A stretch of DNA of 64,000 bases from Candidatus Binataceae bacterium (lineage in GTDB: Bacteria; Desulfobacterota; Binatia; Binatales; Binataceae): positions 1,973-65,972 of the forward strand of contig JBOHWH010000170.1 of the NCBI GenBank assembly GCA_050736695.1. The letters are read 5' to 3'. This document shows, in pieces, positions 35,999 to 62,440 of the stretch; the first letter of the stretch is position 1; every line of letters begins with the position of its first letter. Under the pieces are notes generated by a model that was given only the letters and a program-made list of their open reading frames with translations, searched no databases and was not told the DNA's origin. The position numbers were made by a program, and so were the translations under genes.

Positions 35999-36071
35999 CA
36001 GCTTGGCACTGCGCCTGCGAGTTGTTAGCGTCGCGCCCGATGGAAAAGGAATACGAGCGCGCTATTTCGCG

Positions 36072-36977
36072 ATGAGCCCGCCTGATCCACGGCGGCTGCC
36101 GAATTTTATCGGCGTCGGACCGCCGCGCACCGCGACCACCTGGCTCTACGAGGTCATGCGGGGACACGCGGGATTTTCAGATTTCCGCAAGGAGACCGAC
36201 TTCTTCACGCGCTACTACGATCGTGGCTTCGATTGGTACCTCCAATACTTTGCAGGGTGCGGGGCTGACCTGCCGATGGGAGAGATGTCGCCGCTGTACT
36301 TCGCCTCCGACGATGCGCGCGAGCGAATCAGCCTTGCGATTCCGCAGTGCAAAATCGTCTGCTCGTTTCGCGATCCGGTTGATCGCGCGTGGTCGCATTG
36401 GCGGCTGATGGTGCGCAATCTATGGACCAAGCTCGAATTCGAGCCTGCTGCCGGCGGCATCCGCGATATCCGCGAGTCCAGCCGCTACGGCCATTACACG
36501 GCCAAATGGATCGAAAGCTTCGGCCGGGAAAACGTTCTGCTGATGTTCTATGAAGATCTGGAGCGCGACCCGCAAGCGTTTGTCGATAAAGTCTGCGCGT
36601 TTATCGGCGCGCCGCTATTTCCGCTGAGCGATTCTCCAGCCGCGCAAACCCGGGTTCATACCGTCCCGGCGCGTCCGCGCCATCGCCGGATCGCGCGCAA
36701 CCTTCGCGATATCAGGGATTGGCTGAATGATCGCCGAATGCATCGCGCGGCGAGGATTGTCCGGCAAAGTTCGCTGTGGAGCTACTGCTTCGAGGGCGGC
36801 CAGCCATTCAAGCGTCCGTCGGCAGAGGTTGATGCGCGAATTCGCGCGGCGATGAGGCCGGAGGTCGAGGCGCTCGAGGCAATCAGCGGACGCGACTTAT
36901 CGGCATGGAAGACGGGCAGGGCGCGCGTCGAAACTCAAACGCAAAGCGCCGGCGAAGTTTCCTCCGCCGGCGCCTGA
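36072..36977 (+). CDS. PAPS-dependent sulfotransferase 3
   Basis: GPPRTATTWL, FRDPVDRAWSHW. Confidence 0.8.
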   Translation: MSPPDPRRLPNFIGVGPPRTATTWLYEVMRGHAGFSDFRKETDFFTRYYDRGFDWYLQYFAGCGADLPMGEMSPLYFASDDARERISLAIPQCKIVCSFRDPVDRAWSHWRLMVRNLWTKLEFEPAAGGIRDIRESSRYGHYTAKWIESFGRENVLLMFYEDLERDPQAFVDKVCAFIGAPLFPLSDSPAAQTRVHTVPARPRHRRIARNLRDIRDWLNDRRMHRAARIVRQSSLWSYCFEGGQPFKRPSAEVDARIRAAMRPEVEALEAISGRDLSAWKTGRARVETQTQSAGEVSSAGA

Positions 36978-38345: not shown

Positions 38346-38361
38346 TGGCACTGCCGTCGCA
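38346..38361 (+). promoter_or_regulatory. sigma-54 promoter candidate TGGCAC-TGCCG-TCGCA (orphan; reads antisense into acyl-CoA dehydrogenase gene)
   Basis: 10/11 match to TGGCAC-N5-TTGCA with invariant GG/GC. Confidence 0.45.
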
Positions 38362-40376: not shown

Positions 40377-40492
40377 CGGACGGCGTCTCCTTAGGATGCG
40401 AGTCGCGGTAAGATCGTCCGGCGTCTGCCGCGGAATGTCAACGACAGTTGACTCCGAAACAAGTGCGGCAATTGTCTCTTGAGGAATCTTAG

Positions 40493-40566
40493 TGAGCCGT
40501 CCGGGACTTGAACCCGGGACCCTCTGATTAAAAGTCAGATGCTCTACCAACCTGAGCTAACGGCTC
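40493..40566 (-). tRNA. tRNA-Lys (anticodon UUU), CCA not encoded
   Basis: Revcomp GAGCCGTTAGCTCAGGTTGGTAGAGCATCTGACTTTTAATCAGAGGGTCCCGGGTTCAAGTCCCGGACGGCTCA; anticodon loop CTTTTAA. Confidence 0.85.
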
Positions 40567-41720: not shown

Positions 41721-42974
41721 ATGGATACCGATACTCCCGCGAGCAAACTGCAGAACCCCACGCTCGCTCCCGGACCTTCGATCCGCACTCGCAAGGTGCT
41801 GGCGGGGGTGCAGTGGTGGGTGTGGCTGGCGGGCTTTTCGATTCTGGCGATCGTCGCCTACCTGATGCTCTCGCGGCCCAGTGGCGGAGCGGCAGGACCG
41901 GCAGGCGCGAATGCGAATGCGGGTCGCGCGATGGCGCTGGTGCCGGTTACGGCAATCACTGCGAAGACCGGAGATTTGAACCACTACCTGACCGCGATTG
42001 GCTCGGTCACCGCGTTCAATACCGTCACGCTGATGTCTCGCGTGCCCGGCGAGATCATGAAAGTAACTTTCGCCGAAGGACAGAGCGTGAAGGCGGGCGA
42101 CCTGTTGGTCGAGATCGATCCGCGGCCGTATCAAATTCAGCTCGAGCAGGCCGAAGGAACTCTGGCCAAGGATCAGGCTTCGCTCACCGACAACAAAATC
42201 CTGCTCGCGCGCGACGAAGAGCTGTTCAAGGAAGCGGTGATTGCGCGCCAGGATCTGGACAATCAGCGCGCAACCGAGGCTCAGTTCGAGGGCTCGATTA
42301 TCAGCGATCAGGCCGCGGTCGATAGCGCGAAGCTCCAACTCACTTACAGCAGAATCACCGCGCCGATCAGCGGAAAGATTGGGCTCAGGCTGGTCGATCC
42401 GGGAAACATCGTCGCGATCAACCAGGGACTGATCGTAATCACGCAAGTGCAACCAATATCGGTGCGCTTCAGCATTCCGGAAGACGATCTTCCGCTCGTC
42501 ATCAACGACATGAAGACCAGTCCAAATCTTCCGGTCGAGGCTTGGGATCGCGATTTCAAGACCAAGCTCGCCGACGGCACGCTGCTCACGCTGAACAACA
42601 CGATCGATCAAACCACAGGCACGATCATTCTGAAAGCGGAGTTTCAGAACCTCGATAATCTGCTGTTTCCGAATCAATTCGTAAACGCGCGCCTGCTGGT
42701 CGGCGTCACCAAAGACGCGGTATTGATTCCGGCAGCGGCGGTGCAACGCGGCAACGCGCGCGGTTCGTATGTATTCGTCGTCCAGCCCGGCAAGATCGCA
42801 CAAAAGCGGATCGTGACGATCGGCGCGACTGAGGGCGATACGGTCGCGGTTGCGGCCGGACTCGAATCCGGAGAGGTCGTTGTGACCGACGGCGTTGACA
42901 AGCTGCGCAACGGCTCGCGCGTTGCGGTCCAGATGGCCGCGAATATCGCCTCCACCGGCGGCGGCCGGCAATGA
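41721..42974 (+). CDS. RND efflux periplasmic adaptor (membrane fusion protein, MdtA/AcrA-like)
   Basis: N-terminal TM anchor, coiled-coil hairpin, lipoyl/beta-barrel domains ([13 protein letters not shown]). Confidence 0.85.
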
Positions 42975-45900
42975 ATCCGTCCCGGCCGTTTATTCTGCGG
43001 CCGATCGCAACCTCGCTGCTGATGGCGGGGCTGATGCTCGCCGGCATATTTGCCTACAGGCAGTTGCCGGTCTCCGCGCTGCCGGAAGTCGATTATCCTA
43101 CGATCCAGGTTGTGACCTTCTACCCCGGCGCCAGCCCCGACGTGATGGCGTCTTCGGTCACCGCGCCGCTGGAGCGCCAATTCGGGCAGGTTCCCGGACT
43201 TAACCAAATGACCTCGAACAGTTCGTTCGGGAGCTCGGTTATCACCCTGCAGTTCGTCCTCGATCTGGATATCGATGTGGCCGAGCAAGAGGTGCAGGCC
43301 GCGATCAATGCCGCCTCGACCTATCTGCCGGCCGACTTGCCCAATCCTCCGATTTACAGCAAGACCAATCCCGCCGACGCGCCGATCCTGACCATGGCGT
43401 TGACCTCGACCGAGCTCCCGCTCGATCAGGTGGAAGATCTCGCCGACACGCGCCTTGCGGAGCGCATCTCGCAGCTCTCCGGGGTTGGCCTGGTAAGTAT
43501 CAGCGGCGGACAGAAGCCCTCGGTGCGTGTCGATGCGAACCCTACGGCGCTGGCCTCATACGGACTCAACCTGGAGAGCCTGCGCGTCGCTATCGCGGCG
43601 GCGAATGTGGACGAGGCCAAGGGCAACTTCGACGGCCCGGGGCAGGCGTACACGATTGGCGCCAACGATCAGCTTCTGACTGCGAAAGACTACGGCCCGT
43701 TGATTGTCGCCTATCACAACGGCGCGCCGGTCCGGCTCTCGGATGTCGCCCGGGTCAGCGCCGGGGCTGAGAACGTCAAGGAAGCCGCGTGGATGAATCT
43801 CACGCCGGCCGTAATCATGAACGTTCAGCGCCAGCCCGGCGCCAATATTATCGAGGTCGTCGATCGGATCAAAAAGCTGATGCCGCAGCTTAAAGCCGGG
43901 CTGCCATCGTCGGTCAACGTATCGATTCTGACTGACCGCACAACCACCATCCGCGCCTCGGTCGCCGACGTGCAGTTCGAGTTGATGCTGACGGTGGCGC
44001 TGGTCGTGATGGTCATCTTCCTGTTCCTGCGCAATATCGCAGCCACCGTGATTCCGAGTATCGCGGTGCCGCTTTCGATCGTCGGCACGTTTGGCGTGAT
44101 GTATCTGCTGGGTTACAGCCTCAACAACCTGACCCTGATGGCGCTGACGATCTCGACCGGGTTCGTGGTCGATGACGCGATCGTCATGATCGAGAACATC
44201 TCGCGCTTTATCGAGGAAGGGCAGCCGCCGCTGCAGGCGGCGTTAAACGGCTCCAAGCAAATCGGGTTCACGATCGTGTCGTTGACCGTCTCGCTAATCG
44301 CGGTGCTGATTCCGCTCTTGTTCATGGGCGATATAGTCGGGCGCCTGTTTCGCGAATTCGCGATCACGCTGGCGGTAACGATCCTGGTCTCCGCGGCCGT
44401 GTCGCTGACCCTGACGCCGATGATGTGCGCGCGGCTTTTGCGGCACAAGCCGAAAGCCCGGCAGAACCGCCTCTACCGCAAGTCGGAGCAAATCTTCGAG
44501 GATACGATCGCGTTCTACGGCAAAACGCTCACCTGGGTGCTGCGCCATGAACAGGCGACGCTGGCGGTGGCGATCGCGACGCTTATCCTCACGATCGTTT
44601 TGTACATCGTCGCACCCAAAGGATTTTTTCCGGTGCAGGACACCGGCGTAATCGAAGGCGTGTCCGAGGCGCCTCAGACCATCTCGTTTCCCGCGATGGC
44701 GGCGCGGCAGCAGGAACTCGCCAAGGTGATTCTCGGCAATCCCAGCGTGCAGAGCCTGTCGTCGTTTGTCGGAATTGACGGGACCAACACTACCGTCAAC
44801 AGCGGACGCTTTCTGATAAACCTCAAGCCGCAGGACGAACGCGACGCAACGATCACGCAGGTTATCGCGGGTCTGCAAAACGCAACCGCGCAGATTCATG
44901 GAATCGATTTGTACCTGCAGCCGGTGCAGGACTTGACCGTCGAAGATCGCGTCAGCCGCACCGAGTATCAGTACAGCCTCGAGGATCCGAATCCCGCCGA
45001 ATTAAGCGATTGGACCGCGCGCCTGATGGCGAAGCTCAAGGCGATGCCTCAATTGCGCGACCTCGCAACCGACCAGCAGAACCATGGGCTCGAAGCCGAC
45101 ATTACAATCGACCGCAACACCGCCTCGCGCCTCGGAATTGGACTGCAATCGATCGATGCCAGCCTCTACGACGCGTACGGCCAGCGGCAAGTCTCGACCA
45201 TCTTTACCCAGCTCAACCAGTACCACGTGGTGCTGGAGGTGGCGCCGGAGTTCCAGCAGGATCCGGCCGCGCTCGACGACCTGTATTTTGCCGCAACCGG
45301 CGGTGGCGAAGTTCCGCTGAGCACCTTCGGCAAGATCACGAAAACCACGACTCCGCTGGTGGTGAATCACGAGGGCCAGTTTCCGGCGGTGACGATTTCT
45401 TTCGATGTGGGCCAGGGATACTCGCTCGGTGACGCGGTCAACGCGATCAAGCGGGCCGAGGCCGACATCGGGATGCCGGCCAGCATCCAGGCCGCCTTCC
45501 AGGGAACCGCGCAGGCGTTTCAGGCCTCGCTGGCGAACGAGCCGATCCTGATCCTGGCGGCGCTGATCACGGTCTATATCGTGCTCGGCGTTTTGTACGA
45601 GAGCTACATCCATCCGATCACGATTCTTTCGACGCTGCCGTCGGCGGGAGTCGGCGCGATTCTGGCGCTGCTCATCTGCCGCGAAGATCTGGACGTGATC
45701 GCGCTTATCGGCATCATTCTGCTCATAGGTATCGTCAAAAAAAACGCGATCATGATGATCGACTTCGCGCTCGAGGCGCAGCGCAAGGACGGCAAGTCGC
45801 CGCGCGAGGCGATCTATCAGGCCTGCCTGTTGCGCTTCCGGCCGATCATGATGACCACGATGGCGGCGCTGCTCGGCGGACTCCCGCTCGCGCTCGGCAC

Positions 45901-46095
45901 CGGCACCGGCTCGGAGCTGCGCCGTCCGCTCGGGATCACGATCGTCGGAGGCCTGCTGCTCAGCCAGTTGCTGACGCTGTACACAACGCCGGTAATCTTT
46001 CTTGCCTTCGAGCGTCTGGCGGAACGCTTCGCCGGCGCGCCGTCACCCGTGCCGGTTAAGGACGCGGTGCCCGGGTCGGCGGGAGCGCAGGCTTC

Positions 46096-46099
<4 letters not shown>
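42971..46099 (+). CDS. RND (HAE1) efflux transporter permease, MdtB-like
   Basis: 1042 aa, 12 TM plus two large periplasmic loops; ATGA overlap with adaptor gene. Confidence 0.9.
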
Positions 46100-49206
<3,107 letters not shown>

Positions 49207-49227: not shown

Positions 49228-50157
49228 TCAGCGGCTCGAGATGCGCGGGGCGATACTCGCACCGCTTATCAGGATAAGAACTTCGGAGCGCCGATTCTCA
49301 GGATCGAGCCGCGCTACAAATGCGGGAAACTCGCTGCGCCCGAGTCCGACATCGGTGCGCGCGTCGCAGCCGCATCGCGCCGCCAAGCCGTCGTTGATCG
49401 TGGCGAAGCGGTCCAGATGCAGCGCCGCGATCGGCAGCGAATCTTCGGCGATGCCCAGCTTCAAGATCCCGCCCGCGCCAAGTTCAGGAGCCTCGACCAT
49501 CGGCGTGCCGGCCACCGTCGCAGTCTTAACGACCCAGTTGCGAAACTTGTCGTCACTCATCCGGCCCGTGTGCGAGTTCTCACGCTGAAGCTCGCTGATC
49601 GCGCCTTTCAGGGCCGATTTTGTTGCGCGGCTCGAATGAGCAGGCTTGAGGTTCACGAGCTTCCACATCTGCTCCGACCATCGCGCAACTTCGGCGCGGC
49701 TGGCGCCGGGAGTCGCCTCGTAGTCCTCGGCGGCGGATTCCGCGCCCGCCAAATCGCCGCTCTTGAGCGCATGCTCGACCCGATCCGCGTCGCTCTGCGC
49801 GATCGCCGAATTTATCCGTGCGAGAAGCGGGCCGCTGTTGCTATTGGGCAGGGCCGCCGCCTCGGCGCATGCCTGCTGCTGATCGGCGAGCGGAAATGAG
49901 GGCGCGCCGATGGTGAAATCAGTGATGCACAAGTCGTCCTTGACCTCGCGCAACTCCGCGGCGGAAAGCTTTTCGGGATGCGCCGAAAGAGCGATCAGAT
50001 CGGGACGCGCACGCGCGTAGTCGCCCGCCTTCATCCGCGCCCGCGCAGAGGTTAGCGCGCTCGGGGCGCATCCGGCGGCGAGTAACGCGACGAGGCATAC
50101 TAATCCGATGCCGAGCCCGCCGACGCCGATCGAGGGCGTTTGCGAAGAATGGATCAC
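49228..50157 (-). CDS. hypothetical lipoprotein
   Basis: Signal peptide with lipobox LLAAGC. Confidence 0.5.
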   Translation of the reverse strand: MIHSSQTPSIGVGGLGIGLVCLVALLAAGCAPSALTSARARMKAGDYARARPDLIALSAHPEKLSAAELREVKDDLCITDFTIGAPSFPLADQQQACAEAAALPNSNSGPLLARINSAIAQSDADRVEHALKSGDLAGAESAAEDYEATPGASRAEVARWSEQMWKLVNLKPAHSSRATKSALKGAISELQRENSHTGRMSDDKFRNWVVKTATVAGTPMVEAPELGAGGILKLGIAEDSLPIAALHLDRFATINDGLAARCGCDARTDVGLGRSEFPAFVARLDPENRRSEVLILISGASIAPRISSR

Positions 50158-50303: not shown

Positions 50304-50981
50304 CTACGCGGTGGCTTGATAGTTCCCGTGATCCGCTGGATGTATTCGATGGATGCGATCCATCTCGTCGCGCGCGGTGCGTTCGCGAACCGAGTCCGAT
50401 TCACCAAGCGGAACCGAATCCTTCATGCTCGTTTCGTTGTACAGCGCGGCGAAAGATCCGTAACCGCTGATCACGCCCGAAATCAGGGCGGAGATTCCAC
50501 CAATCACGCCGATGACACCCACGGCGGTGAACATTGCAATTCCCATCAGTCCGAACGCGATCCAGAGAAATAGCAACGACAGATTCATCGCGGCAAATTC
50601 ATAGAACGATGCGACCCACAGCCACAACGTGACTACCGCACTGACGATAAAAACCATCGCCACGCTGTCGATCGCCACCGCACTGGCGGCATGAACGCCA
50701 AAAACGGTCAGGTGGGCCAAGCCCCACCAGCCAAAGAACGCGCCCAGAAAAGTGAACGCGGTTGCCGCGATCGGATCGCCGTATGCAAATCCCCACATTC
50801 CAGCGAGGATTTCGATCAGTCCTCCAAACAGCATCGCCTCCAACATATACGGCGCCCACGCGGTTACAGGCTGAAAGATTACCGCGACACCCATCAGGAA
50901 CACGGCTACCGCAAGTCCTGCCAACCCGAGAGGGATCGGTGATGCCAAGCCCTTGTCTTTACCCGGTCGTAACATACGCAC
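50304..50981 (-). CDS. GPR1/FUN34/YaaH (SatP-like) succinate-acetate/proton symporter family protein
   Basis: N-terminal ASPIPLGLAGLA (NPAPLGL signature variant), 6 TM. Confidence 0.7.
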   Translation of the reverse strand: MRMLRPGKDKGLASPIPLGLAGLAVAVFLMGVAVIFQPVTAWAPYMLEAMLFGGLIEILAGMWGFAYGDPIAATAFTFLGAFFGWWGLAHLTVFGVHAASAVAIDSVAMVFIVSAVVTLWLWVASFYEFAAMNLSLLFLWIAFGLMGIAMFTAVGVIGVIGGISALISGVISGYGSFAALYNETSMKDSVPLGESDSVRERTARDEMDRIHRIHPADHGNYQATA

Positions 50982-51446
50982 CTCCGTTTGGGCGGCGCGC
51001 TGATCGAGAGAGGGACGTCAGAACGCCGCAGGTTTAACGTGTGTCTTGCACACATCTAATCTCCGTTCGGCTTCGTCTCTGTCGTCGAACGGGGCGTTTA
51101 CGTTTCAATTATTAGACGCATGAGAAACGCGAAATTATTCAATGCGCAGAGGTAATTGTCGCAGCCGATGTATCGCGACATGACCGATATCGCGTCAAGT
51201 GTTCGCTGGTGTCGCACAGACAGGCATTGGCCACATCGTGTCACCAGCAGCGACAAATCCTGGTCAATTACGCCGTACTTCGTTTATTTCCATTTCAATT
51301 CGGAGAATCTGTCGTACCAGATCGAAACGCTATTCAAAGAATCCGGAGGCTCTTATCGTACCGTGTCCGGACACTCCTTGTATCAATCTCGTGCAAATAC
51401 TCGATTCAGGTGCATAAGCAGCTCGCTGCGACGCATCTGTTCGCTG

Positions 51447-51462
51447 TGGCATGACCTCTGCA
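51447..51462 (+). promoter_or_regulatory. sigma-54 promoter candidate TGGCAT-GACCT-CTGCA ~90 nt upstream of flp
   Basis: -24 TGGCAT and -12 CTGCA with canonical GG-N10-GC spacing. Confidence 0.55.
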
Positions 51463-51550
51463 CTTGTCACCCGTCGACAGCGGAAAACAACGGAGTTCAT
51501 CTCCAAATTACGTCAACACGAGCCATCGCTCGAAGGTCAGGAAAAGAGTC

Positions 51551-51730
51551 ATGCGGAACTGGATCACAAAGATGTACGTGCGAATGAATATGGCCAAGGG
51601 ACAGACAATGACCGAGTACGTGCTGATTATCGCCGCGATCGCGGTGGCAGGCTACGTCGCCTACCAAGGCCTCGAAGGCGGTATCAACGAGATCATTACG
51701 AATGTCACGAACACCTTGGCGGGCGCGTAA
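51551..51730 (+). CDS. flp: Flp-family type IVb pilin (Tad pilus major subunit)
   Basis: 59 aa; leader ...MAKG then QTMTEYVLIIAAIAVAGYVA (Flp G/xxxxEY processing motif and hydrophobic stretch); start 51551 (alternatives 51575/51590). Confidence 0.75.
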   Translation: MRNWITKMYVRMNMAKGQTMTEYVLIIAAIAVAGYVAYQGLEGGINEIITNVTNTLAGA

Positions 51731-51745
51731 TTCGTCACCGGCGAG

Positions 51746-51812
51746 CACGGATGATCTCCGTGTCGCCGTATGCATCGGCAGCCGGCGGCGGGAAAACATT
51801 CCCGCTGCCGGC
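51746..51812 (+). terminator. two hairpins downstream of flp (CACGGA-TGATC-TCCGTG; GCCGGCGGCGGG-AAAACATT-CCCGCTGCCGGC), possible attenuator/terminator
   Basis: Seen directly; no clear U-tract. Confidence 0.35.
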
Positions 51813-51992
51813 AACCGAATCCAATAGGAGAACCGAACGGCGCCAACAGAGTAGTCGCAAACTGCGATCGCTCCGAAGTTGAAGAGATCTTGAACCAACG
51901 CAGTGCCTGGATCGTGATGCGCCAATAGCCAGTCGCGCACCGAGGAATTTTAACCCGGCGGGCCGTATGAGCGGGCGGAACCGAGGGGAGAA

Positions 51993-53087
51993 ATGAGAAG
52001 ACCATTGATTTTCGCGATCCTGGCGGGGTTTGCCGCGGTCCTTGCCGCGATAATTGTTTTTTCTGCCCTTAAACGGCGTGAGGCCGAGGTGCAAAAGGCG
52101 CTCGCGAGCAGCGTCGATATCGTGGTCGCCGCGCATGACCTGGTACTCGGCGCGCGAATCGATGCGAGCGCGGTCAAGCTGGCGCGATGGTCGCGCGACA
52201 GCGTGCCATCGGGCGCCTTCACCGACCCCCAGGCGCTGATCAATTCATTCGTAAAAATAGAAATTGTCGCGAACGAACCGGTCGTTGCCGCCAAGTTGTT
52301 CATGGGCGCGAAGACCGCGGGCGTGATGCCGCTGCTCATCCCCGACGGGATGCGCGCGATGGCGGTGCCGGTCGACGAGATCAGCGATATCGCAGGCTTC
52401 GTGCAGCCGCGCGCGCATGTTGACGTGCTGGTGTCGGTGTCGGGCTCGGGCCGCGACGAGCCGTCGTTCTCGAAGATGGTCCTGCAGGATATTGAAGTCC
52501 TGGCGGTCGCGCAGGAAATCGAAAGGAAGAACGACGACCCGGAGGAAGTCAAAGTTGTGACCCTGCTGGTCACTCCCGACCAGTCCGAGAAACTCGCATT
52601 GGCGAGCCACGAGGGTCAGTTGCGGCTCTCGATGCGCAATTACGACGATAGCAAGATCGTCATGACCAACGGCGCCGAGATGCGCGATCTGCACGGCGTC
52701 GGACCTCCCGCGTTGCCCGCTCAGATGGCGATCGTGCCGCGGCATGATTCGCCTCCGATGCGCAGGCTGAGCGTGCAGATCCTGCGCGACGGAAAATCCG
52801 ACGAATCGGTCTCTTTCGTGAAAGCCGGGCTGGGAGCGCATCACATGAGCCTGATGCAGGCGCTCCCTCCGACCGCCGCGGCCGTGCCAACCGCGTCCGC
52901 GGCAGCTTCGGTTGCGGCTGCGCCGCAGCCGCCCGCGCGAGTCTCTGCCTCGATCATGGCGCCGCCGTTATTGGCGAAAACTCTGGGAGCTGACGCGGAC
53001 GTGCCCGCACGATCGGCTGATCCTCCGTTTCCCGATCCCGCCACAACCCCGTACGCGCCGGCGCCGAAGACGATTGCGATTCCGTGA
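51993..53087 (+). CDS. cpaB: Flp pilus assembly protein CpaB/RcpC
   Basis: N-terminal TM, SAF/BON-like domain, Pro-rich C-terminus; SD GAGGGGAG. Confidence 0.8.
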   Translation: MRRPLIFAILAGFAAVLAAIIVFSALKRREAEVQKALASSVDIVVAAHDLVLGARIDASAVKLARWSRDSVPSGAFTDPQALINSFVKIEIVANEPVVAAKLFMGAKTAGVMPLLIPDGMRAMAVPVDEISDIAGFVQPRAHVDVLVSVSGSGRDEPSFSKMVLQDIEVLAVAQEIERKNDDPEEVKVVTLLVTPDQSEKLALASHEGQLRLSMRNYDDSKIVMTNGAEMRDLHGVGPPALPAQMAIVPRHDSPPMRRLSVQILRDGKSDESVSFVKAGLGAHHMSLMQALPPTAAAVPTASAAASVAAAPQPPARVSASIMAPPLLAKTLGADADVPARSADPPFPDPATTPYAPAPKTIAIP

Positions 53088-54934
53088 CCGCGTGGAAGCA
53101 AAGGCGAGCAGCAATGCAGTCTCAGACATCAAACATAAACAGATTCGGACTCTGGACGGTCGCGATCGCCGCCGCCTGGGCAATCGCGATCGCCGGAGCC
53201 CGTGCCGCTTGGGCGCAAGCCGATCGTCCGATCGCGCAAGTCCCCCTGACGATCACGGCGGGTGAGAGCTACACCGTCGATAACCTGGCGCCCGACAGCA
53301 GGCCCGCGGTGCGCGTGATCGATAATCCGCATGCGCTGGTGGTTCATTCCGAGCTGCCGGGCAAGATGATTCTGCTCGGCGCCGAACGCGGACGATGGAT
53401 CATCGCCGTCACGCGAGCGGACGGCCGGCAGGCGGCCTACGACGTCGTCGTGAATAGTGTCGCAACGCCCGGTGATCCGCTCAAACCGGGCGTGAGCCCC
53501 AACGCGACCATTGGTGAGGGGCTTACCGGCTCGCGTGCGGCCCGGTCGCCATCGCCGGCACCGTCGATGGGCTTGGCCGCCGCGCCGCCGGATTCTTCCG
53601 CGGCGGGCGAGCTCGCGCCAATGGCGCCTGCGAGAGTCGCGCCGCAGCCGATTGCGAATTCGCAGACCTTCGGCTTCGCTCCCGCGGCGGCGACTGCCGC
53701 GAAAACCCCCGGCAACGATGTTCCCGAAGGCAAATGGCGCAGCGATCCCGCCGTCGCGAGCAATGGCGGCTACACCTCGCCTTCAGACTCGGGCGGTCCG
53801 GGCGCGCCCAACTTCATGTCCGACGATTCGATCGTGCTGATGCAGGGAACCTCGAAGGTGCTCGATTTTCGCCGCCGCCTCATCCGCGTCTCGATCGCGG
53901 ACTCCAAAATCGCGGACATCCAGGTGATAAATCCGTCGCAGATAAATCTGGTCGGACATGCACCGGGCTTCACGACCTTGGCGGTGTGGGACGATCAGGG
54001 CAACTACCAGGAGCGCCAGGTGCGGATCGACAGCGGCGGCAAGCAGCAGGTGATGCTCAACTGCGTGGTCGCGGAGCTGGATCGCTCGACGATCGAAAAC
54101 CAGGGCATCAATCTGTCGCTCGCGCTCGCAAACTATGGCTTCTCGATCGTTGGATTGCCGGGCGCGGTCGCAACCCCCTATAGCGCTCAGAGTCAGCTTT
54201 CGTCCTCGGGACCGCAGGGCGGCTCAGCCGGAGGAATTCTGCCATTTGGCGGCGAACTGATTCCGCTGGTTCTCTCACCGAATTTGACTTACGGGCTCGC
54301 GGCCGGAAACTCGAATATCCAGACCCAAAGCTTTTTTCAGTTTCTCGAAAATCACAATCTGGCGAAGATCCTCGCGGAGCCGCATCTGCTCGCGAACTCC
54401 GGCGAACAAGCCAAGTTCCTGTCGGGCGGCGAAATTCCGATCGTAATCGCACAGGCGCTCAACACCTCGATCGTGTTCAAGCAGTTCGGCACCTCGGTCG
54501 ATTTTTTGCCCACGGTTGTCGGCCGCAACACGATCGAGCTGTACGTCAAGCCCGAGGTTTCGGAGCCCGACTTTGCGCACGGGGTCTCGATGTTCGGGTT
54601 CACGGTTCCGGCTTTCGTCACGCGGCGCGCGCAAACGATGGTCACGCTGCGCGACGGGCAGACGCTCATCCTGGCGGGATTGATCCTGCACAACCCGATT
54701 TCAGTGGTTAACAAGGTGCCTTATCTGGGCGACGTGCCGTACCTGGGCGGACTTTTCCGCACCACTCAGCACACGATTCAGGAGACCGATCTGGTGATGA
54801 GCGTGACGCCGCGGATTGTCGAACCGCTTCCGCGGGGCGCGCGGGTTGATCTGCCGGAAGGCAGCAGGATGTCGGCCGATGAAATCAAGACTCGCGAAAT
54901 CAGTCCGCCCGACGCGTCGCGGCCGCGGTTCTAG
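53084..54934 (+). CDS. cpaC: Tad secretin CpaC/RcpA
   Basis: Secretin C-domain (NCVVAELDRSTIENQGINL ... LAEPHLLANSGEQAKFLSGGEIPIV). Confidence 0.85.
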   Translation: MTAWKQRRAAMQSQTSNINRFGLWTVAIAAAWAIAIAGARAAWAQADRPIAQVPLTITAGESYTVDNLAPDSRPAVRVIDNPHALVVHSELPGKMILLGAERGRWIIAVTRADGRQAAYDVVVNSVATPGDPLKPGVSPNATIGEGLTGSRAARSPSPAPSMGLAAAPPDSSAAGELAPMAPARVAPQPIANSQTFGFAPAAATAAKTPGNDVPEGKWRSDPAVASNGGYTSPSDSGGPGAPNFMSDDSIVLMQGTSKVLDFRRRLIRVSIADSKIADIQVINPSQINLVGHAPGFTTLAVWDDQGNYQERQVRIDSGGKQQVMLNCVVAELDRSTIENQGINLSLALANYGFSIVGLPGAVATPYSAQSQLSSSGPQGGSAGGILPFGGELIPLVLSPNLTYGLAAGNSNIQTQSFFQFLENHNLAKILAEPHLLANSGEQAKFLSGGEIPIVIAQALNTSIVFKQFGTSVDFLPTVVGRNTIELYVKPEVSEPDFAHGVSMFGFTVPAFVTRRAQTMVTLRDGQTLILAGLILHNPISVVNKVPYLGDVPYLGGLFRTTQHTIQETDLVMSVTPRIVEPLPRGARVDLPEGSRMSADEIKTREISPPDASRPRF

Positions 54935-54954
54935 CCGCCGCTTATGAGGATCTC

Positions 54955-56166
54955 GTGTCAGTGCTCGGAGCAAATTACGAAACCAGGCGCGGAACGCTGC
55001 ACGTACACTTGATGGGAGATAACGCCGAGCAGCGCGGCGCCGCGAAAGCCGCCCTGATGCTGCTGGGCGATCCGCCGCTGGAAATCGAAGAGTCGGTGCT
55101 GGGCGCGCAGCCCGCGACCAAGCCCGACGTCCTGATGGTGATCGTTGCGAATAACGAAGAACAGAGCATCTCGTGCCTGCGAGCGGAGGCGGGGACGACT
55201 CCGCGCCCGATCATCTTTGCGCTGTTGCAATCGCGATCTCCCGGCCTGGTGAAGCGCGCGCTGCGCGCCGGCGCCGACGAGTTGCTGGTCACCCCGGTCG
55301 ATTCCGGCGACGCAACCTGCGCACTCCTCAAGATCTCGGAAGCGCGATGGCGCTCGGACCGGCGCGACGGCGGTGTGGTCTGCTCGTTCGCCAGTATTGT
55401 CGGCGGAGTGGGGGTCACGACCCTGGTCGCGAACCTCGGCCTCGCGTTGCGCAAGGCGCAAAAACGCGTTGCGCTTATCGACCTCGATCTGCAGACCGGA
55501 GGACTTGCGGTGGTGCTCGGCCTGGAACCCGAGGTCACGATTCTGCCGCTCATCCGCCTGGACCGAAAGCTCGATTCGATCCAGCTCGAATCGGCGATGA
55601 TCAAGCATCCGTCCGGCCTCTATCTGCTGGCTGCGCCAAAACGAATCGAAGAGGGCGAGATGGTGAGCGACGTTACGGTAGGAACCGTGATCGATCTGAT
55701 GCGCCAGCTATTCGACTTCGTAATTATCGACTGCGGCGATCATATCGACGAAAACGCAGTCGCCGCCTGGGAGCGCTCGGAGCATCTGTTCTACGTGCTC
55801 GAGCAATCGATTACCTCCGCTCGATGCGCGTGGCGTTTCGTCGATTTGTTCGAGCGGCTTGGGCTTACCTCGCTCCAGCCGCGCTTCGTGCTGAACCGTC
55901 ATCGCACGATGCATCCAATCACCGATAAACAGATCGAAACCACGCTCGGGCGCGATCTCTACGCGCGGATTCCTGCCGACGATCGCGCGCTGGAACGCGC
56001 CGAGGTCACCGCCAAAGACCTGTGGCAAGTCGCGCCCGCTTCGCCGCTGGCGCATTCGCTCGAGGCGCTCGCGCGCCGTATCGCGCCGAGTGCCGCCGAG
56101 TCCGCAATCGAGCCCGACACCGGATTCATCGCGCGGATCAGATCCGCCTTCGCCGCCCACGCTTGA
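54955..56166 (+). CDS. cpaE: CpaE/TadZ (receiver-like N-domain + MinD/ParA-like ATPase)
   Basis: VCSFASIVGGVGVTTLVANLG deviant Walker A. Confidence 0.8.
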   Translation: MSVLGANYETRRGTLHVHLMGDNAEQRGAAKAALMLLGDPPLEIEESVLGAQPATKPDVLMVIVANNEEQSISCLRAEAGTTPRPIIFALLQSRSPGLVKRALRAGADELLVTPVDSGDATCALLKISEARWRSDRRDGGVVCSFASIVGGVGVTTLVANLGLALRKAQKRVALIDLDLQTGGLAVVLGLEPEVTILPLIRLDRKLDSIQLESAMIKHPSGLYLLAAPKRIEEGEMVSDVTVGTVIDLMRQLFDFVIIDCGDHIDENAVAAWERSEHLFYVLEQSITSARCAWRFVDLFERLGLTSLQPRFVLNRHRTMHPITDKQIETTLGRDLYARIPADDRALERAEVTAKDLWQVAPASPLAHSLEALARRIAPSAAESAIEPDTGFIARIRSAFAAHA

Positions 56167-56176
56167 GGTTTTAATC

Positions 56177-57559
56177 ATGGGGCTTACCCAACGACTGAAC
56201 AACGCAAATTCCGGAGCCGCCGCCGCGGCCAGCGCGGCCGCGCCAGGATCGCTTATCGGAGGCACCGTCAAGCGGCGCAAAGACGCGCTCGGCGATGGCT
56301 CGCGCCGGCTCAAAATCAAAGTTCACAACCGCCTGTTCGAGACGATCGATGTATCCAAGCTCGAGTCGCTCGAACCCACGGCGATGTCGGCAAAAGTCAC
56401 CGCCGCGATCACCGAAATCTTAAACGAAGAAGGGCGCCTTCTGACCGACACCGATCGCACCCGCCTGGTCGAGGAAATCAAGAACGAGCTGCTCGGACTG
56501 GGTCCGCTCGAGCCGCTTCTGCGCGATGACGATATCACCGATATCCTCGTAAACGGCCACAATCAGGTCTATGTCGAGCGCTTCGGCAAGTTGCATCCGG
56601 CAGACGTCCATTTTCAGGACGATCAGCATCTGATGCTGATTATCGATCGAATCGTTTCGCGGGTCGGCCGCCGCGTCGATGAATCCTCGCCGATGGTCGA
56701 TGCGCGCCTGCCCGACGGCTCGCGCCTCAACGCGATCATCCCGCCGCTCGCGCTCGACGGGCCGTCGCTTTCGATCCGCCGCTTCGGACGCAAGCGTTAC
56801 GACATCTCAGGACTGGTCGAAAAGGAATCCATCACCTGGGAAGTGGTCGAGTTTCTGCTCGCGGTGGTGCGCGCGCGCCTGAACGTGATCGTCGCGGGCG
56901 GCACCGGCTCGGGCAAGACGACGATGCTCAATTGCCTGTCGGCGTTCGTACCCGAAGACGAGCGGATTGTCACGATCGAGGATTCGGCGGAGCTGTCGCT
57001 GCAGCAGCCGCACGTGGTGCGGCTCGAATCGCGGCCGGCAAATCTGGAGGGCAAGGGTGAAATCACGCAGCGCGATCTGGTGCGCAACTGCTTGCGTATG
57101 CGCCCGGACCGAATCGTCGTCGGAGAGGTTCGCGGCGCCGAGGTCCTGGACATGCTGCAGGCGATGTCCACCGGACATGACGGCTCGATCGCGACGGTCC
57201 ACGCCAACTCGACCCGCGAATGCCTGGGACGCTTCGAAATGATGATGCTGCTGTCGGGGGTGTCGATTCCTCAGCGCGCGATGCGCCAGCAGATCGCGTC
57301 GGCGATCAACATCGTCATCCACGTAAGCCGCCTCTCTGACGGCACCCGCAGGGTGATGAAGGTTTCGGAAATCACCGGCATGGAAGGCGAGATGATCATG
57401 ATGCAGGATCTTTACGAATACGTGCGCGGCGACCCGCGCGCCGACGGAAAGCTTACCGGCCAGTTGCGCTCGACAGGAGTGCGCTCGCATTACGCGCCCC
57501 GGCTCGAAGCGGTTGGTTACAAAAACGATGCGCGCCTGTTCAAGGCCGCACAGCCGTAA
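56177..57559 (+). CDS. cpaF: CpaF/TadA secretion ATPase (T2SS/T4P VirB11-like)
   Basis: GGTGSGKTT Walker A, Asp box, His box. Confidence 0.9.
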
Positions 57560-57580
57560 GTACGCGCCGCCTTAATCACA

Positions 57581-58543
57581 ATGGATATTGTAATCGCCGC
57601 CGCCGCATTTCTGTTCGTGCTCGTCCTCGGTGGCTTCGTTATCGCGCGCCACAAAGGCACGCCGTGGCTCGGCCGCAACGTGATGCGCCGGATGGCTCCC
57701 GCGGCCACTGTCTCCTCGGCCGGCGGGATTCTGCGCACCAGCGGCAGGCGCAACAAGAAAGCCGCCACCCGCATCCTCGCCGGCGTGATGCGGATCCATC
57801 TGATCCAGCGGCTCGAACAAACCATGTGGCAGGCCGGCATTTACTTGAGGGTTGCCGATATCCTGCTCGTGATGGTTTTGCTGGCGGGTGCGGGAATCGT
57901 CGGCGCGGGCGCGTTCTTTAGTAGCCCTCTCATTTCGCTCGGGATTGGAATCGGGATCGGCATTCTGCCGCTGATGTACATCCGGCTGCGCCGCCAACGG
58001 CGGATGAAGGCTTTCGCGGTTCAGCTTCCATACGCGCTCGATCTGATCAAGTCGTCGATCGAGGCGGGCCATTCGCTGCTCCGCGGCTTGCAGGTCGTAG
58101 TCGCCGAATTTGGCGATCCTATCGGCGGCGAGTTCCGCTCCGTGATCGAGCAATCGCGCCTGGGTCTGCCCCTGCCGCGCGCGCTCGAGGAGATGCTCGA
58201 GCGCGTTCCGATCGAGGATCTGCGCCTGCTGGCGGTCGCGGTGCGGGTTCAGTCGGAAGTCGGCAGTTCGCTTGCGCAGATAATCGGACGGCTCTCGGAA
58301 ATTGTCCGCACCCGCCAGCGAATTCATCAGCAGATCCGCGCGCTGACCGCGCAATCGCGGATGAGCGGCTTGGTGATCGGATTTCTGCCGATCGCCATGC
58401 TCGGTGCGTTCAGCATTATCCAGCCCGCGTATGTACACACGCTGTTTTATGATCACTCGGGACAGACGATTCTGAAAGTCGCGGCGGTGCTTGATCTGAT
58501 GGCGTTCGTGACCATTCGAAAGCTTCTCAAGGTGGAATTCTGA
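57581..58543 (+). CDS. tadB: TadB inner-membrane platform protein (T2SSF family)
   Basis: T2SSF domain, 320 aa. Confidence 0.8.
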   Translation: MDIVIAAAAFLFVLVLGGFVIARHKGTPWLGRNVMRRMAPAATVSSAGGILRTSGRRNKKAATRILAGVMRIHLIQRLEQTMWQAGIYLRVADILLVMVLLAGAGIVGAGAFFSSPLISLGIGIGIGILPLMYIRLRRQRRMKAFAVQLPYALDLIKSSIEAGHSLLRGLQVVVAEFGDPIGGEFRSVIEQSRLGLPLPRALEEMLERVPIEDLRLLAVAVRVQSEVGSSLAQIIGRLSEIVRTRQRIHQQIRALTAQSRMSGLVIGFLPIAMLGAFSIIQPAYVHTLFYDHSGQTILKVAAVLDLMAFVTIRKLLKVEF

Positions 58544-58544
58544 A

Positions 58545-59480
58545 ATGTCCGCAATGTATATCACGCTCGCCTTCATTCTGCTGATGTCGGCCGCGATGGT
58601 GGCGGCGTATGCCGCGCTATTCGGCACTTCGCGCGTGCGCGACGATCGAATCACCGATATGGCGGTCAAGATGCGCGTCAGCTCTACAGGCCGCGGCGTC
58701 GCCAGGGAAATCGACTCCTCGCTCGCGCACGCTCTCTTCCGATGGGTCGCCCAGCGCCTGCCCGCGCCGCGGACCGATACGCCGAAGGCCGAGCAACTAG
58801 CGCATCTGCTGATGCAAGCCGGCTATTTGCGCTCGAGCGCGGTGCGAACATTTCAGATGGTCCGGATCGCCACCACCGGCGGCGTCGCGATTCTGACCCT
58901 GGTGATCGCGTTCGCCTCGGCACGCTCGGGGATGATGGTCATTATGTTGCTGGCGGCCGGATGCGGCGTCGGCGCATTCATCCCGAGCTTCTATATCGGC
59001 CGCAAGGCGCGCAAACGTCAACGCGCAATCGCGAGCCAGCTCTCCGACGTGCTCGACCTGCTCGTAGTCTGCGTCGAAGCCGGACTCGGCCTGTCCGAAG
59101 CGATTAAGGTCGTCGGCACCGAGGCTGAACGCCACGGACAGGTGATCGGAACCGAACTCGCACTGGTGTCGGGCGAGCTCGCCGCGGGCTCGAGCCTCGG
59201 ACAGGCGCTCAGACAGTTCGCGGATCGAACCGCGGTCGCGGACGTGAAGCCGCTTGCCGCGACCCTAATCCAGAGTGAGCAGATCGGCGCGCAAATCGGA
59301 CCCGCACTACGCTCGATTTCGGATTCACTGCGTTCCGCCCGCCGGATGCGAGCCGAAGAGGCTGCGCAGAAAACTACGGTAAAGATTATGTTCCCGCTGG
59401 TGCTCTTCGTCCTTCCCGCGATGATGAGCGTGATCGTAGGTCCCGCGATGATCCAGATCATGCAGACCTTAACCAAGTAA
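58545..59480 (+). CDS. tadC: TadC inner-membrane platform protein (T2SSF family)
   Basis: T2SSF domain paralog immediately downstream of tadB. Confidence 0.8.
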   Translation: MSAMYITLAFILLMSAAMVAAYAALFGTSRVRDDRITDMAVKMRVSSTGRGVAREIDSSLAHALFRWVAQRLPAPRTDTPKAEQLAHLLMQAGYLRSSAVRTFQMVRIATTGGVAILTLVIAFASARSGMMVIMLLAAGCGVGAFIPSFYIGRKARKRQRAIASQLSDVLDLLVVCVEAGLGLSEAIKVVGTEAERHGQVIGTELALVSGELAAGSSLGQALRQFADRTAVADVKPLAATLIQSEQIGAQIGPALRSISDSLRSARRMRAEEAAQKTTVKIMFPLVLFVLPAMMSVIVGPAMIQIMQTLTK

Positions 59481-59590
59481 GAGCCGCCAGTCGCGCTAGC
59501 ACACTCCTGCGATGAGTCACGCGCCTTTTCTCTCGCGCACGCGGCTTGACGGACGGGGCGCTATCGGTCTGCAATGGAACGAGCGCCGCT

Positions 59591-60076
59591 ATGAACGAAA
59601 CTCCGGAAAAGACCCGGGCCCTCGAGCTCTGGAACGAAGGCGTGCAGCATCATATTCTGCGCGACCTTGACGGCGCGATCCGCCTCTACACGAAATCGAT
59701 CGAGGCGTTTCCGACCGCGGAGGCATACACGTTTCGCGGATGGGCGTATCAGGGGATGGGCCGGCTCGACGATGCGATCGCGGAGTGTAAGCGCGCGATC
59801 GCGGTCGATCCTTCCTTCGGTAATCCCTACAACGATATCGGCGCCTACCTGATGGCCAAGGGCGAGCTCGACGAGGCGATCGGATGGCTCGAACAGGCCA
59901 AACTTGCGCCGCGTTACGAGCCGCGTCATTTCCCGCATATGAATCTTGGCCGCGTGTACGAAGCCAAGGGAATGATCGCGCGCGCGATCGAGGAATTCGA
60001 GCAGGCACTGAAATTCGCGCCGGCCGATTCGACCTGCGCGGCGATGCTCCAGCGGCTGCGCGCGATGCTGAATTGA
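59591..60076 (+). CDS. TPR-repeat protein (TadD-like?)
   Basis: Three or more TPR units (AEAYTFRGWAYQGMGRLDDAIAECKRAIAVDP...). Confidence 0.65.
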   Translation: MNETPEKTRALELWNEGVQHHILRDLDGAIRLYTKSIEAFPTAEAYTFRGWAYQGMGRLDDAIAECKRAIAVDPSFGNPYNDIGAYLMAKGELDEAIGWLEQAKLAPRYEPRHFPHMNLGRVYEAKGMIARAIEEFEQALKFAPADSTCAAMLQRLRAMLN

Positions 60077-60091: not shown

Positions 60092-60538
60092 ATGCTCAAG
60101 GTTGCCGACCGCGCGCCCGAGTTCACACTCCCAGCCCACGACGGCAGGACGATCTCAAGCGCCGATCTGCGCGGACGCAAGGTGCTCTTATGGTTTTATC
60201 CGGCCGCGAGCACTCCCGGATGCACCACTGAAGGACGCGGCTTTCGCGACCATCAGAGTTACTATGATGAAAACGAAATTCAAATCCTGGGCGTCAGCTT
60301 CGACCCTACCGAAGCCAATGCGGCGTTCGCGCGCAATAATGGATTCAAATTTCCGCTGCTGAGCGATTGCACCCGGAAAACCGCGCTCGCTTACTGCGCA
60401 TGCGCCGATCTGAAATCGACAACGCCGGAACGGATGAGCTTTCTAATCGACGAAGACGGACGGATCGCTAAAATCTACGATCACGTCGATCCGCGTGACC
60501 ATCCGGCGCGCGTACTCGCCGAGCTGCTGGACGTGTGA
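60092..60538 (+). CDS. bcp: peroxiredoxin Bcp (thiol peroxidase, AhpC/TSA family)
   Basis: FYPAASTPGCTTE active-site motif. Confidence 0.85.
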   Translation: MLKVADRAPEFTLPAHDGRTISSADLRGRKVLLWFYPAASTPGCTTEGRGFRDHQSYYDENEIQILGVSFDPTEANAAFARNNGFKFPLLSDCTRKTALAYCACADLKSTTPERMSFLIDEDGRIAKIYDHVDPRDHPARVLAELLDV

Positions 60539-60684: not shown

Positions 60685-60699
60685 TGGCATCGCGATGGC
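60685..60699 (+). promoter_or_regulatory. weak sigma-54-like element TGGCAT-CGCGA-TGGCG ~110 nt upstream of second bEBP gene
   Basis: GG/GC spacing correct, -12 element poor. Confidence 0.3.
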
Positions 60700-60810
60700 G
60701 TAATGGCAAAATCCCGACGTTGATTTCGATTCAAGCGGTCGCACGATCGAGCATTGCTCGCATGTGGCGATTTGAATCACTGTGGCCTGTCATTTGCTTC
60801 ACAACCCTGC

Positions 60811-62049
60811 ATGACCACGGATCGAGATACGTCCGATCCCGCGCACGAGCGCGTGACGGAGGTAGCGGGAGTGTTGCAGCTTGGCGATCTGGGCGTCGCC
60901 GCCGCGGATTTGGAACAATCGGATCGGGTGCCGCTGTCGCGACTGGCGCAAGGTTCAGAGCGAATCGGCGGGATGGTCGTGCGGTCGGCGCAGGTGCGCA
61001 AAGTCCTGAAAACGATAGCGCGGCTAAGCCCGTACAAGGCCAGCGTTCTTGTCTACGGAGAATCAGGTACCGGTAAAGAGCTCGTCGCCCGCGCGTTGCA
61101 CACGCTCGGGCCAATACCGAACGGACCATTCGTTACCTTCAATTGCGCGAATCTGGTCGAGTCGCTCGCCGAGTCGCAGCTCTTCGGCCATGTGAAGGGC
61201 GCCTTCACCGATGCGCGCGAAGACTCGTTTGGTTATTTCCGGTCGGCGAATGGCGGCACGCTGTTTTTGGACGAGATCGGCGAATTGCCGCTCAAGCTTC
61301 AGCCCAAGTTGTTGCGCGCGGTCGAGACTTGCGAGATCCAGCCGGTCGGATCGTCGCATACCCATAAAATAGATATTCGGCTGGTGGCGGCGACGAATCG
61401 GGATCTGCGCGCGATGGTCAAGGCGGGCCAGTTTCGTGACGATTTGTACTATCGCCTCAACACGGCGGCGATTTTCCTGCCGCCGCTACGCGAACGGCGC
61501 GAGGCGATTTCCGCCTTCATCGCGCATTTTATTGAACATTACAATCGGCTCTTCGGCAAGGAGGTGATGTTCGTGGATCGGCGGGCTTTGGAAAGCCTGC
61601 TGGCCTACGGATGGCCCGGCAATGTGCGCGAGCTCGCCCACGCAATCGAGAACGCGGTTATCCTGGCCGAGAGCGATTGCCTGATCGGCGAAGACCTGCC
61701 CGAACACATCCTCGAAATAGCCGGAGCCAGTATCGGCAACGAGACCGCCCAGTCGCATGCCGCGTCCGCGCCGCAGGTTTCGGGCGACTCACGCGCGACA
61801 AATTCAAATGGCGGCGCCGGTCCGCTACTTTTGGACGAAGTGATCAAGCGCACGCTGGTGCGCTCGCTCGAAGAGACCGACGGAAATCGCCGGCGCGCCG
61901 CGGATCTCCTCGGGGTGTCGCGTTCGACGCTTTACCGGATGCTTGCGCGCTACGGGATCGGCGAAAACGGCCACGCCGATCACAGGCCAGTCGAATCCGC
62001 GCCTGACGACGGCAAAAATTGCGGCGCGGATCACGACTGGGCCATGTAG
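60811..62049 (+). CDS. sigma-54-dependent activator, second domainless paralog (start could be 60754)
   Basis: AAA+ core ~85-90% identical in protein to 36998-38188; same short N-terminus; HTH at C-terminus. Confidence 0.85.
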   Translation: MTTDRDTSDPAHERVTEVAGVLQLGDLGVAAADLEQSDRVPLSRLAQGSERIGGMVVRSAQVRKVLKTIARLSPYKASVLVYGESGTGKELVARALHTLGPIPNGPFVTFNCANLVESLAESQLFGHVKGAFTDAREDSFGYFRSANGGTLFLDEIGELPLKLQPKLLRAVETCEIQPVGSSHTHKIDIRLVAATNRDLRAMVKAGQFRDDLYYRLNTAAIFLPPLRERREAISAFIAHFIEHYNRLFGKEVMFVDRRALESLLAYGWPGNVRELAHAIENAVILAESDCLIGEDLPEHILEIAGASIGNETAQSHAASAPQVSGDSRATNSNGGAGPLLLDEVIKRTLVRSLEETDGNRRRAADLLGVSRSTLYRMLARYGIGENGHADHRPVESAPDDGKNCGADHDWAM

Positions 62050-62122: not shown

Positions 62123-62440
62123 ATGCTCAACTCAAACGCCCTGATTACTTTCGCGGTTCTCTTCCTGCAGGTGGCGACGATTGCGTGCGCCGCACCGGCC
62201 GCTGCCGGCGCGAAAGACCTCAAGCCTCCAGCCGATCTGGTCAAGCTCGAGCGCGAGGTCTCGCTCAAGATCGCTCACGCCCGCGGCGAGGGGCCGACCG
62301 ACCCGGGCAAGCGTCGTCAACTGAGCGACGCCGAGCAACTCGATGCCAAAGCCGAAAATGAAATTGGCGCCGGCGACTTTCGCGTTGCCGAGGACGATCT
62401 GGTGAAGGCCAATGCACTCGCGACCGAGCTGCTGCATTAG
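62123..62440 (+). CDS. small secreted hypothetical protein
   Basis: Signal peptide LITFAVLFLQVATIACAAPAAA; 105 aa, charged mature part. Confidence 0.4.
   Translation: MLNSNALITFAVLFLQVATIACAAPAAAGAKDLKPPADLVKLEREVSLKIAHARGEGPTDPGKRRQLSDAEQLDAKAENEIGAGDFRVAEDDLVKANALATELLH

Follow-up and report, generated by a model that had tools for sequence, protein, structure and literature searches.

The window, that is, the whole 64-kb stretch of Binataceae DNA analysed here, carries a Tad (type IVc) pilus cluster on its + strand (51551–60076), recognised from its open reading frames and Pfam matches. The cluster opens with flp (51551–51730, +), which encodes a 59-aa prepilin of the Flp type; its processing motif is G/QTMT-EY. 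The start codon lies at 51551, not 51552, giving the leader MRNWITKMYVRMNMAKG followed by QTMTEY. Around the processing site the product reads ...AKG/QTMTEYVLIIAAIAVAG..., with the G/XXXXEY motif and a hydrophobic core. Against the Pfam family Flp_Fap it scores 18.4 bits (E=0.0019), below the cut-off of 32.2; the processing motif and the genomic context back its identity as a Flp protein.

The machinery genes follow on the same strand: cpaB (51993–53087), with RcpC and SAF domains and CpaB homologues; the cpaC secretin gene (53084–54934; Secretin and T2SS-T3SS_pil_N); tadZ/cpaE (54955–56166), encoding a ParA/MinD-like protein according to Pfam; the cpaF/tadA ATPase gene (56090–57559; T2SSE); and tadB (57581–58543) and tadC (58545–59480), both matching T2SSF. 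The Pfam search therefore recovers a machinery set of CpaB/RcpC, secretin, TadZ/CpaE, TadA/CpaF ATPase, TadB and TadC. An NCBI protein from a Candidatus Binataceae MAG, annotated as Flp pilus assembly protein CpaB, shares 100% identity with the CpaB of the window. A gene for a TPR protein, also assigned with Pfam, closes the cluster (59546–60076, +), followed by an AhpC/TSA peroxiredoxin gene (60092–60538) and then by the gene of a sigma-54 activator, here called EBP1. The interval between flp and the TPR gene leaves no room for a prepilin peptidase (TadV/CpaA) or for the minor pilins TadE/TadF. Upstream, flp is preceded by 569 bp of non-coding DNA (50982–51550) with 51.1% GC, compared to 62.0% in the window, which corresponds to the AT-richer stretch of 570 bp described in the first-pass annotation of this DNA. 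Its far end is bounded by a GPR1/FUN34/YaaH transporter gene (50304–50981, −).

For comparison, we assembled 80 related tad loci from species-representative genomes, found through CpaB homologues. Almost all of them come from Binataceae or Binatus MAGs, and their CpaB identities range from 47 to 83%. The loci could be sorted into types. In type A, which includes the window, Flp ends in ...GLEGGIN.I.NVT..., and the gene order hyp-flp-cpaB-(cpaC)-tadZ-cpaF-tadB-tadC-TPR-(AhpC)-EBP1 is kept. Type-B loci contain two to four tandem flp genes, and their Flp proteins end in ...VGYQTMG..VDGKL; they include L016, L032, L044, L046, L050, L051, L054, L055, L057, L059, L063, L064 and L076–L080. Many genomes carry both types together. 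In seven type-A loci (L012, L021, L022, L023, L027, L047 and L053), tadZ comes directly after cpaB and the cluster has no cpaC secretin gene.

Two uncharacterised proteins accompany the type-A clusters. A predicted lipoprotein of 309 aa, with the lipobox LLAAGC, is encoded divergently from flp (49228–50157, −) and is conserved in this divergent upstream position in nearly all type-A loci (44–86% identity). It has no family match in Pfam or NCBIfam and could be a Tad-associated component that has gone unrecognised. Both the window and L010 have the GPR1/FUN34/YaaH transporter gene inserted between the lipoprotein gene and flp. At the other end, a small ORF (approximately 62123–62440, +) comes right after EBP1. 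Counted from an internal Met, its product has about 105 aa, and the N-terminus resembles a signal peptide. Its position is kept in most type-A loci (43–68% identity), and it has neither a family match nor an equivalog-level name in NCBIfam. NCBIfam likewise offers no equivalog-level name for EBP1, its paralogue EBP2, flp or the divergent lipoprotein.

The -24/-12 element upstream of flp

A sigma-54-type -24/-12 promoter element, TGGCATGACCTCTGCA, is located on the + strand at 51447–51462. The first-pass annotation had reported a near-consensus motif with exact GG/GC spacing at this position, about 90 nt before flp, and both the coordinates and the description were correct: the GG (51448–51449) and the GC (51460–51461) are exactly 10 nt apart, and 90 nt separate the GC from the flp ATG. 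The element agrees with TGGCACG-N4-TTGCW at 10 of the 12 specified positions. The two off-consensus letters are a T at position 6 and a C at position 12, the latter position never showing the consensus T in the compared genomes. Judged on the window only, the motif does not exceed chance expectation: the degenerate pattern yields one match against 0.14 expected, with at least one match in 14 of 100 shuffled sequences, and the consensus with two mismatches allowed yields 19 matches against 22 expected. The significance of the motif comes, therefore, only from its conservation across genomes.

This conservation was assessed in the 75 loci with enough sequence upstream of the first flp gene to be testable. 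The pattern TGGCAY-N6-TGCW was found on the coding strand, at most 320 nt before the first flp, in 64 of them. Four further loci carry it 322–374 nt upstream of flp, and two others differ from it at the last letter only. A background scan of both strands over 2.83 Mb retrieved only 11 matches outside the 320-nt regions (0.004 per kb), four of which are the sites located 322–374 nt upstream of flp. The probability of finding the pattern by chance in a 320-nt region is about 0.001, and none of these flp-upstream regions contains it on the minus strand.

The sequences of the motif differ between locus groups (TGGCATGACCTCTGCA, TGGCATGAGTGGTGCA, TGGCACGAGAGATGCT and TGGCACAAGACGTGCT, among others), and the spacer reads GACCTC, GAGTGG, GAGAGA or AAGACG depending on the locus type. 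The letters that remain invariant across loci are TGGCA and TGC, which form the sigma-54 core in the GG-N10-GC register, while the bases between them vary. Even loci whose CpaB is only about 50% identical and whose flanks defy alignment keep the motif. Since the spacers differ and the distant flanks cannot be aligned, the conservation of the motif reflects more than the shared ancestry of neutral sequence. In the window's own subgroup, the flanks share about 67% identity, and eight of ten aligned sequences have the 16-mer unaltered.

That AT-richer intergenic DNA produced the motif by chance would fit the expectation and the shuffles obtained for the window, and also the behaviour of a second near-consensus site. 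This site, TGGCACTGCCGTCGCA (38346–38361, +), lies in the spacer upstream of EBP2, one mismatch away from the sigma-54 consensus; it points into the 3′ end of an acyl-CoA dehydrogenase gene on the minus strand, is not conserved in the orthologous region of locus L056 (where GG is replaced by AG) and has no Rfam match, and we treated it as a chance occurrence. The recurrence of the flp-upstream motif in the same place, at a frequency so far above its background, refutes such an explanation for 51447–51462, whose probability is practically nil. A further candidate, TGGCACTGCGCCTGCG at 36004, was discarded, as it lies in a coding overlap with no enhancer-like site nearby.

From its sequence conservation, then, 51447–51462 is very probably a real sigma-54 promoter of flp in Binataceae, as had been proposed for the window, and transcription of flp would depend on sigma-54. 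A search for ORFs with an RpoN box gave no match in the window and the 1.4 Mb of fetched loci, where none had been expected; rpoN is presumably present in the genome, given its many sigma-54 activators.

Adjacent activators and enhancer-like sites

EBP1 (60754–62049, +) is encoded where the tad cluster ends, 9.2 kb downstream. This sigma-54 enhancer-binding protein has a Sigma54_activat AAA+ domain at residues 75–240, with the Walker A motif GESGTGK and the L1 loop GAFTDA, and a C-terminal HTH_8 domain (Fis-type HTH). Its true start is likely M20, at 60811. EBP2 (36998–38188, −), encoded 13.3 kb upstream, is a paralogue with 73% identity to EBP1. Both proteins match Sigma54_activat with E=1e-63 and share the Walker A GESGTGK and the GAFTDA loop, and their HTH recognition helices are nearly identical. 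The presence of two sensor-less activators within 10 and 15 kb had already been pointed out, and the distances hold; what the first-pass annotation expressed as mere proximity is better described by the position of EBP1, the likelier cognate, as the last conserved gene of the tad cluster.

Neither EBP1 nor EBP2 has a Pfam domain before the AAA+ domain, and REC is absent from both. In the EBP1 family, the conserved part begins about 15 aa before the GGMVVRS / AAA+ core, and the preceding N-terminal tail of 30–55 aa is variable and not conserved among 29 orthologues. In L012, L018, L019, L022 and L024, the open frame upstream of the AAA+ domain of the EBP1 orthologue is too short to accommodate a domain. 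Judging from these sequence features, the EBP1 family is genuinely sensor-less. An EBP1 orthologue (64–83% identity) is encoded on the same strand, 6–10 kb after cpaB, in every type-A locus with a full downstream flank. The earlier suggestion that a domainless activator serves flp is thus strengthened by the finding of one orthologous family of such activators syntenic with the tad cluster.

The first-pass annotation had also recommended a search for an IHF site and for upstream activator sequences 80–150 bp upstream. A putative upstream activator sequence of the GT-N12-AC dyad type, GTACCGTGTCCGGACA (51358–51373, +), lies 89 nt before the T of TGGCA, and its region holds the perfect palindrome GTGTCCGGACAC at 51363–51374. 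A dyad about 88 nt upstream of the promoter element is conserved in type A: in 36 of 39 type-A loci, the pattern GTNNNS-N5-SNAC keeps a fixed distance to the T of TGGCA, at −85 to −90. Its type-A form is GTNNCG-N4-SGGACA, with most loci reading TGT-N11-ACA, and it is absent from the corresponding position in type-B loci. The loose version of the pattern is common in the background (1.2 per kb), so it is the fixed position, rather than rarity, that speaks for the site; elsewhere in the window, the enhancer motif does not occur above chance. EBP1 would be the protein that binds GTACCGTGTCCGGACA.

Two other conserved boxes flank this site. The first, TGTATCAATCTCGTG (51378–51393, +), lies between the enhancer and the promoter and corresponds to the alignment block TGTCTCATTCGC / TCTCAGATTCGC. 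In the window it resembles the IHF site TATCAA-N4-GTG with one mismatch, but relatives do not keep the IHF-like letters. The second, CAGATCGAAACGCTATTCA (51318–51336, +; alignment columns 176–196), reads ATCTGAAACACTATTC in relatives.

Type-B loci have a different enhancer and a different activator. Of 29 loci, 28 have the element GTTGC-N6-GCAAC at −89 to −92; its background frequency is 0.023 per kb, and no type-A locus has it. It is usually extended by a third GTTGCA, resulting in GTTGC-N6-GCAAC-N5-GTTGCA at about −90, and the promoter motif is mostly TGGCACGAGAGATGCT. The neighbouring activator is a convergently encoded REC-AAA-HTH response regulator (Response_reg, E=1e-23) with a GSFTGA loop. 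Enhancer type and activator type change together, and this offers the strongest evidence at hand that the neighbouring activator is the cognate one.

A third tad group (L017, L040, L049, L071 and L074) keeps a sigma-54-type site before flp (TGGCACAAGACGTGCT and similar sequences). Its neighbouring REC-AAA-HTH protein has no GAFTGA loop and, in L040, the one member scanned with Pfam, also matches the VpsR domain. That the motif is kept although the neighbour lacks the loop indicates that adjacency is not always a guide to the activator. It also lends some support to a reading of the 16-mer as the operator of another DNA-binding protein, or as part of a sigma-70 promoter region, with a coincidental likeness to sigma-54 sites, since the regulator next to one locus group lacks the loop that contacts sigma-54. 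However, the invariant letters are precisely those of the sigma-54 core in its register, with the intervening bases free to vary, a sigma-54-class activator is syntenic in nearly all loci, and no sigma-70-like -35/-10 pair was detected on the + strand upstream of flp. We consider this reading very unlikely.

If the promoter is a real sigma-54 promoter, its activator could be EBP2, or a mixed EBP1/EBP2 hexamer as in HrpR/HrpS, instead of EBP1 alone. The identity between the two paralogues, their shared lack of a sensor and their nearly identical recognition helices would allow it, and in L056 orthologues of both bracket the tad locus. There, the EBP2 orthologue (377–1537, −) lies 2.6 kb upstream of the locus, beside a tRNA-Lys(UUU) gene (1836–1912, +). 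A tRNA-Lys(UUU) gene (40492–40566, −) also adjoins EBP2 in the window, where the tRNA, an AidB-like dehydrogenase gene, a TetR gene and an RND efflux pump (41721–49206) occupy the space between EBP2 and the flp region. The presence of the same tRNA gene beside EBP2 in both loci suggests that the TetR/RND-pump segment was inserted next to it and separated EBP2 from flp in the window. Against EBP2, L056 is the only locus in which both paralogues lie within 10 kb of a tad locus, and the orthologues that are universally syntenic are those of EBP1. A role for EBP2 at the flp promoter is possible, but we regard its acting there in place of, or together with, EBP1 as rather unlikely. On its other side (33154–36977, +), EBP2 neighbours genes for two sulfotransferases and a family-2 glycosyltransferase, possibly for a sulfated glycan or exopolysaccharide; a convincing sigma-54 site for this cluster was not detected.

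Leader, hairpins and a model of flp transcription

Given the usual distance of 12 nt from the GC, transcription is predicted to start at about 51473, which would produce a 5′ UTR of 78 nt (51473–51550, +) with a ribosome-binding site. RNAalifold predicted two conserved hairpins in this leader, at 51492–51504 (GGAG/CTCC) and 51519–51532 (CGAGC/GCTCG), both on the + strand. Across 10 orthologous UTRs, nine pairs were obtained, two of them with compensatory changes, and the GGAG/CTCC hairpin becomes GGAA/TTCC in relatives. These two small hairpins downstream of the motif might be taken to mean that the conserved block acts as RNA, within a longer flp leader started further upstream. However, the motif lies outside all predicted pairing, its two short blocks with a free spacer show the conservation typical of a DNA site, no promoter was found further upstream, and Rfam gave no match in the flp region (and only two tRNAs in the whole window). 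An RNA-level function of the block is, accordingly, scarcely credible.

A conserved GC-rich stem-loop without a U-tract lies at 51775–51818 (+), 45 nt after the flp stop codon. In the window its 20-nt arms are 85% complementary; a 12-bp stem is kept in 10 of 10 relatives, and 6 of 25 predicted pairs show compensatory changes. This structure is likely an attenuator or an mRNA-stabilising hairpin that separates the pilin gene from the machinery genes. By limiting read-through or by stabilising the pilin message, it would probably leave the pilin in excess over the machinery.

We consider it highly probable that the sigma-54 promoter at 51447–51462 drives flp, and probably also cpaB–tadC, under activation by EBP1 from GTACCGTGTCCGGACA. 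In this model, the sigma-54 RNA polymerase holoenzyme would occupy 51447–51462 as a closed complex, and EBP1 hexamers would assemble through their Fis-type HTH on GTACCGTGTCCGGACA (51358–51373), about 100 bp upstream of the start site. DNA looping would bring EBP1 to sigma-54, and ATP hydrolysis would open the promoter. Transcription from about 51473 would then yield the 78-nt leader, and predicted read-through from flp past the conserved hairpin would probably extend to the cpaB–tadC machinery genes. As EBP1 has no sensor domain, the output is presumably set by the abundance of EBP1 or by a partner protein. The neighbours of EBP1 are the TPR protein, the AhpC/TSA peroxiredoxin, the small exported ORF and XdhC, none of them PspA- or HrpV-like.

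No + strand terminator was found between tadC and EBP1, so co-transcription and positive feedback are possible. Direct autoregulation of EBP1 through a sigma-54 site was also considered and rejected. The candidate TGGCATCGCGATGGCG (60686–60701, +), about 70 nt upstream of the EBP1 ORF, has the GG-N10-GC spacing but not the TGC core and recurs at the same position only in L006 and L010, making it at best a weak sign of such autoregulation.

A broader proposal is that the main Tad pilus of Binataceae is placed on a dedicated sensor-less sigma-54 switch, controlled by feedback, by an anti-activator or by EBP1/EBP2 hexamer formation, among orthogonal pilus circuits. We hold this to be improbable as it stands. 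If it were true, EBP1 could be co-transcribed with the tad operon, and the resulting positive feedback could create a bistable piliation switch; alternatively, EBP1 could answer to an anti-activator or form HrpR/HrpS-like mixed hexamers with EBP2. The paralogous tad loci, with their receiver-domain activators and different enhancer, would then constitute orthogonal sigma-54 circuits for different pili.

Relation to known systems

Binataceae belong to the phylum Binatota; they are abundant in soil and peat, uncultured and without genetics. The predicted elements described here would make up a complete cis-regulatory model of their main surface adhesin, comprising promoter, enhancer, activator and leader, in which each paralogous Tad locus has its own sigma-54 activator and matching enhancer. 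We found no description in the literature of Tad regulation in Binatota, nor of a sensor-less activator linked to Tad pili.

PilS–PilR and RpoN control the type IVa pilin gene pilA in Pseudomonas aeruginosa, Geobacter and Myxococcus, and this regulation is classical for type IVa pili. As predicted for the window, a separate sigma-54 promoter with upstream activator sites serves the major pilin gene, and the machinery is regulated separately or less strongly. The pili differ, however, type IVa in one case and Tad/type IVc in the other, and PilR is a response regulator driven by the PilS kinase, whereas the system in the window has neither kinase nor receiver.

The architecture of EBP1 is that of PspF and HrpR/HrpS, sigma-54 activators without an N-terminal regulatory domain, and it implies control in trans (as by PspA and HrpV) or through the expression level. 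Like them, EBP1 consists of AAA+ plus HTH only, and the genome encodes two close paralogues, as with HrpR/HrpS. EBP1 is not an orthologue of PspF (246 bits against a cut-off of 443 for TIGR02974, and 222 against 529 for NF008622). It also differs from these systems in having no PspA/HrpV-like partner nearby, and in that its target would be a pilus instead of a regulon for membrane stress or type III secretion.

NifA-type enhancers read TGT-N10-ACA. Most type-A loci have the similar TGT-N11-ACA (aTGTACCGCGATGCGACAc), in a dyad about 100 bp upstream of the predicted start site, but type A has one more base in the spacer, and the window carries C in place of the outer T (cGTACC...GGACAc).

The closest regulatory precedent is DVU2114, a response regulator of Desulfovibrio vulgaris Hildenborough that targets Flp-like pilin genes and an assembly operon in DAP-chip and that figures in the organism's sigma-54 regulome (Rajeev et al. 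2011, PMC3333781; Kazakov et al. 2015, PMC4641369). As proposed for the window, a sigma-54-class activator encoded near a Tad/Cpa-like cluster has its target upstream of small Flp-like pilin genes, and relatives conserve the binding motif together with these genes. DVU2114, however, has a two-component receiver domain and a GAFTGA loop, whereas EBP1 has GAFTDA and neither a receiver nor another sensor. In Binataceae, the arrangement resembling DVU2114 is that of the paralogous type-B tad loci, not that of the window's locus. GAFTDA is also the loop given for DVU2106, a characterised activator. For Pectobacterium, it has been shown that flp/tad is not controlled by VasH, a sigma-54 activator.

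The first-pass annotation had called the arrangement uncommon. This holds for the sensor-less activator, which is indeed unusual, but not for sigma-54 control of a Flp/Cpa pilin, for which DVU2114 is a precedent, and the paralogous tad loci of Binataceae themselves use receiver-domain activators. The result is a useful and well-supported annotation, a solid regulatory prediction and not a conceptual surprise or a new kind of system. With it, sigma-54 control of Tad/Flp pili would no longer be limited to the one precedent in Desulfovibrio, and what it adds as new is a family of sensor-less activators.
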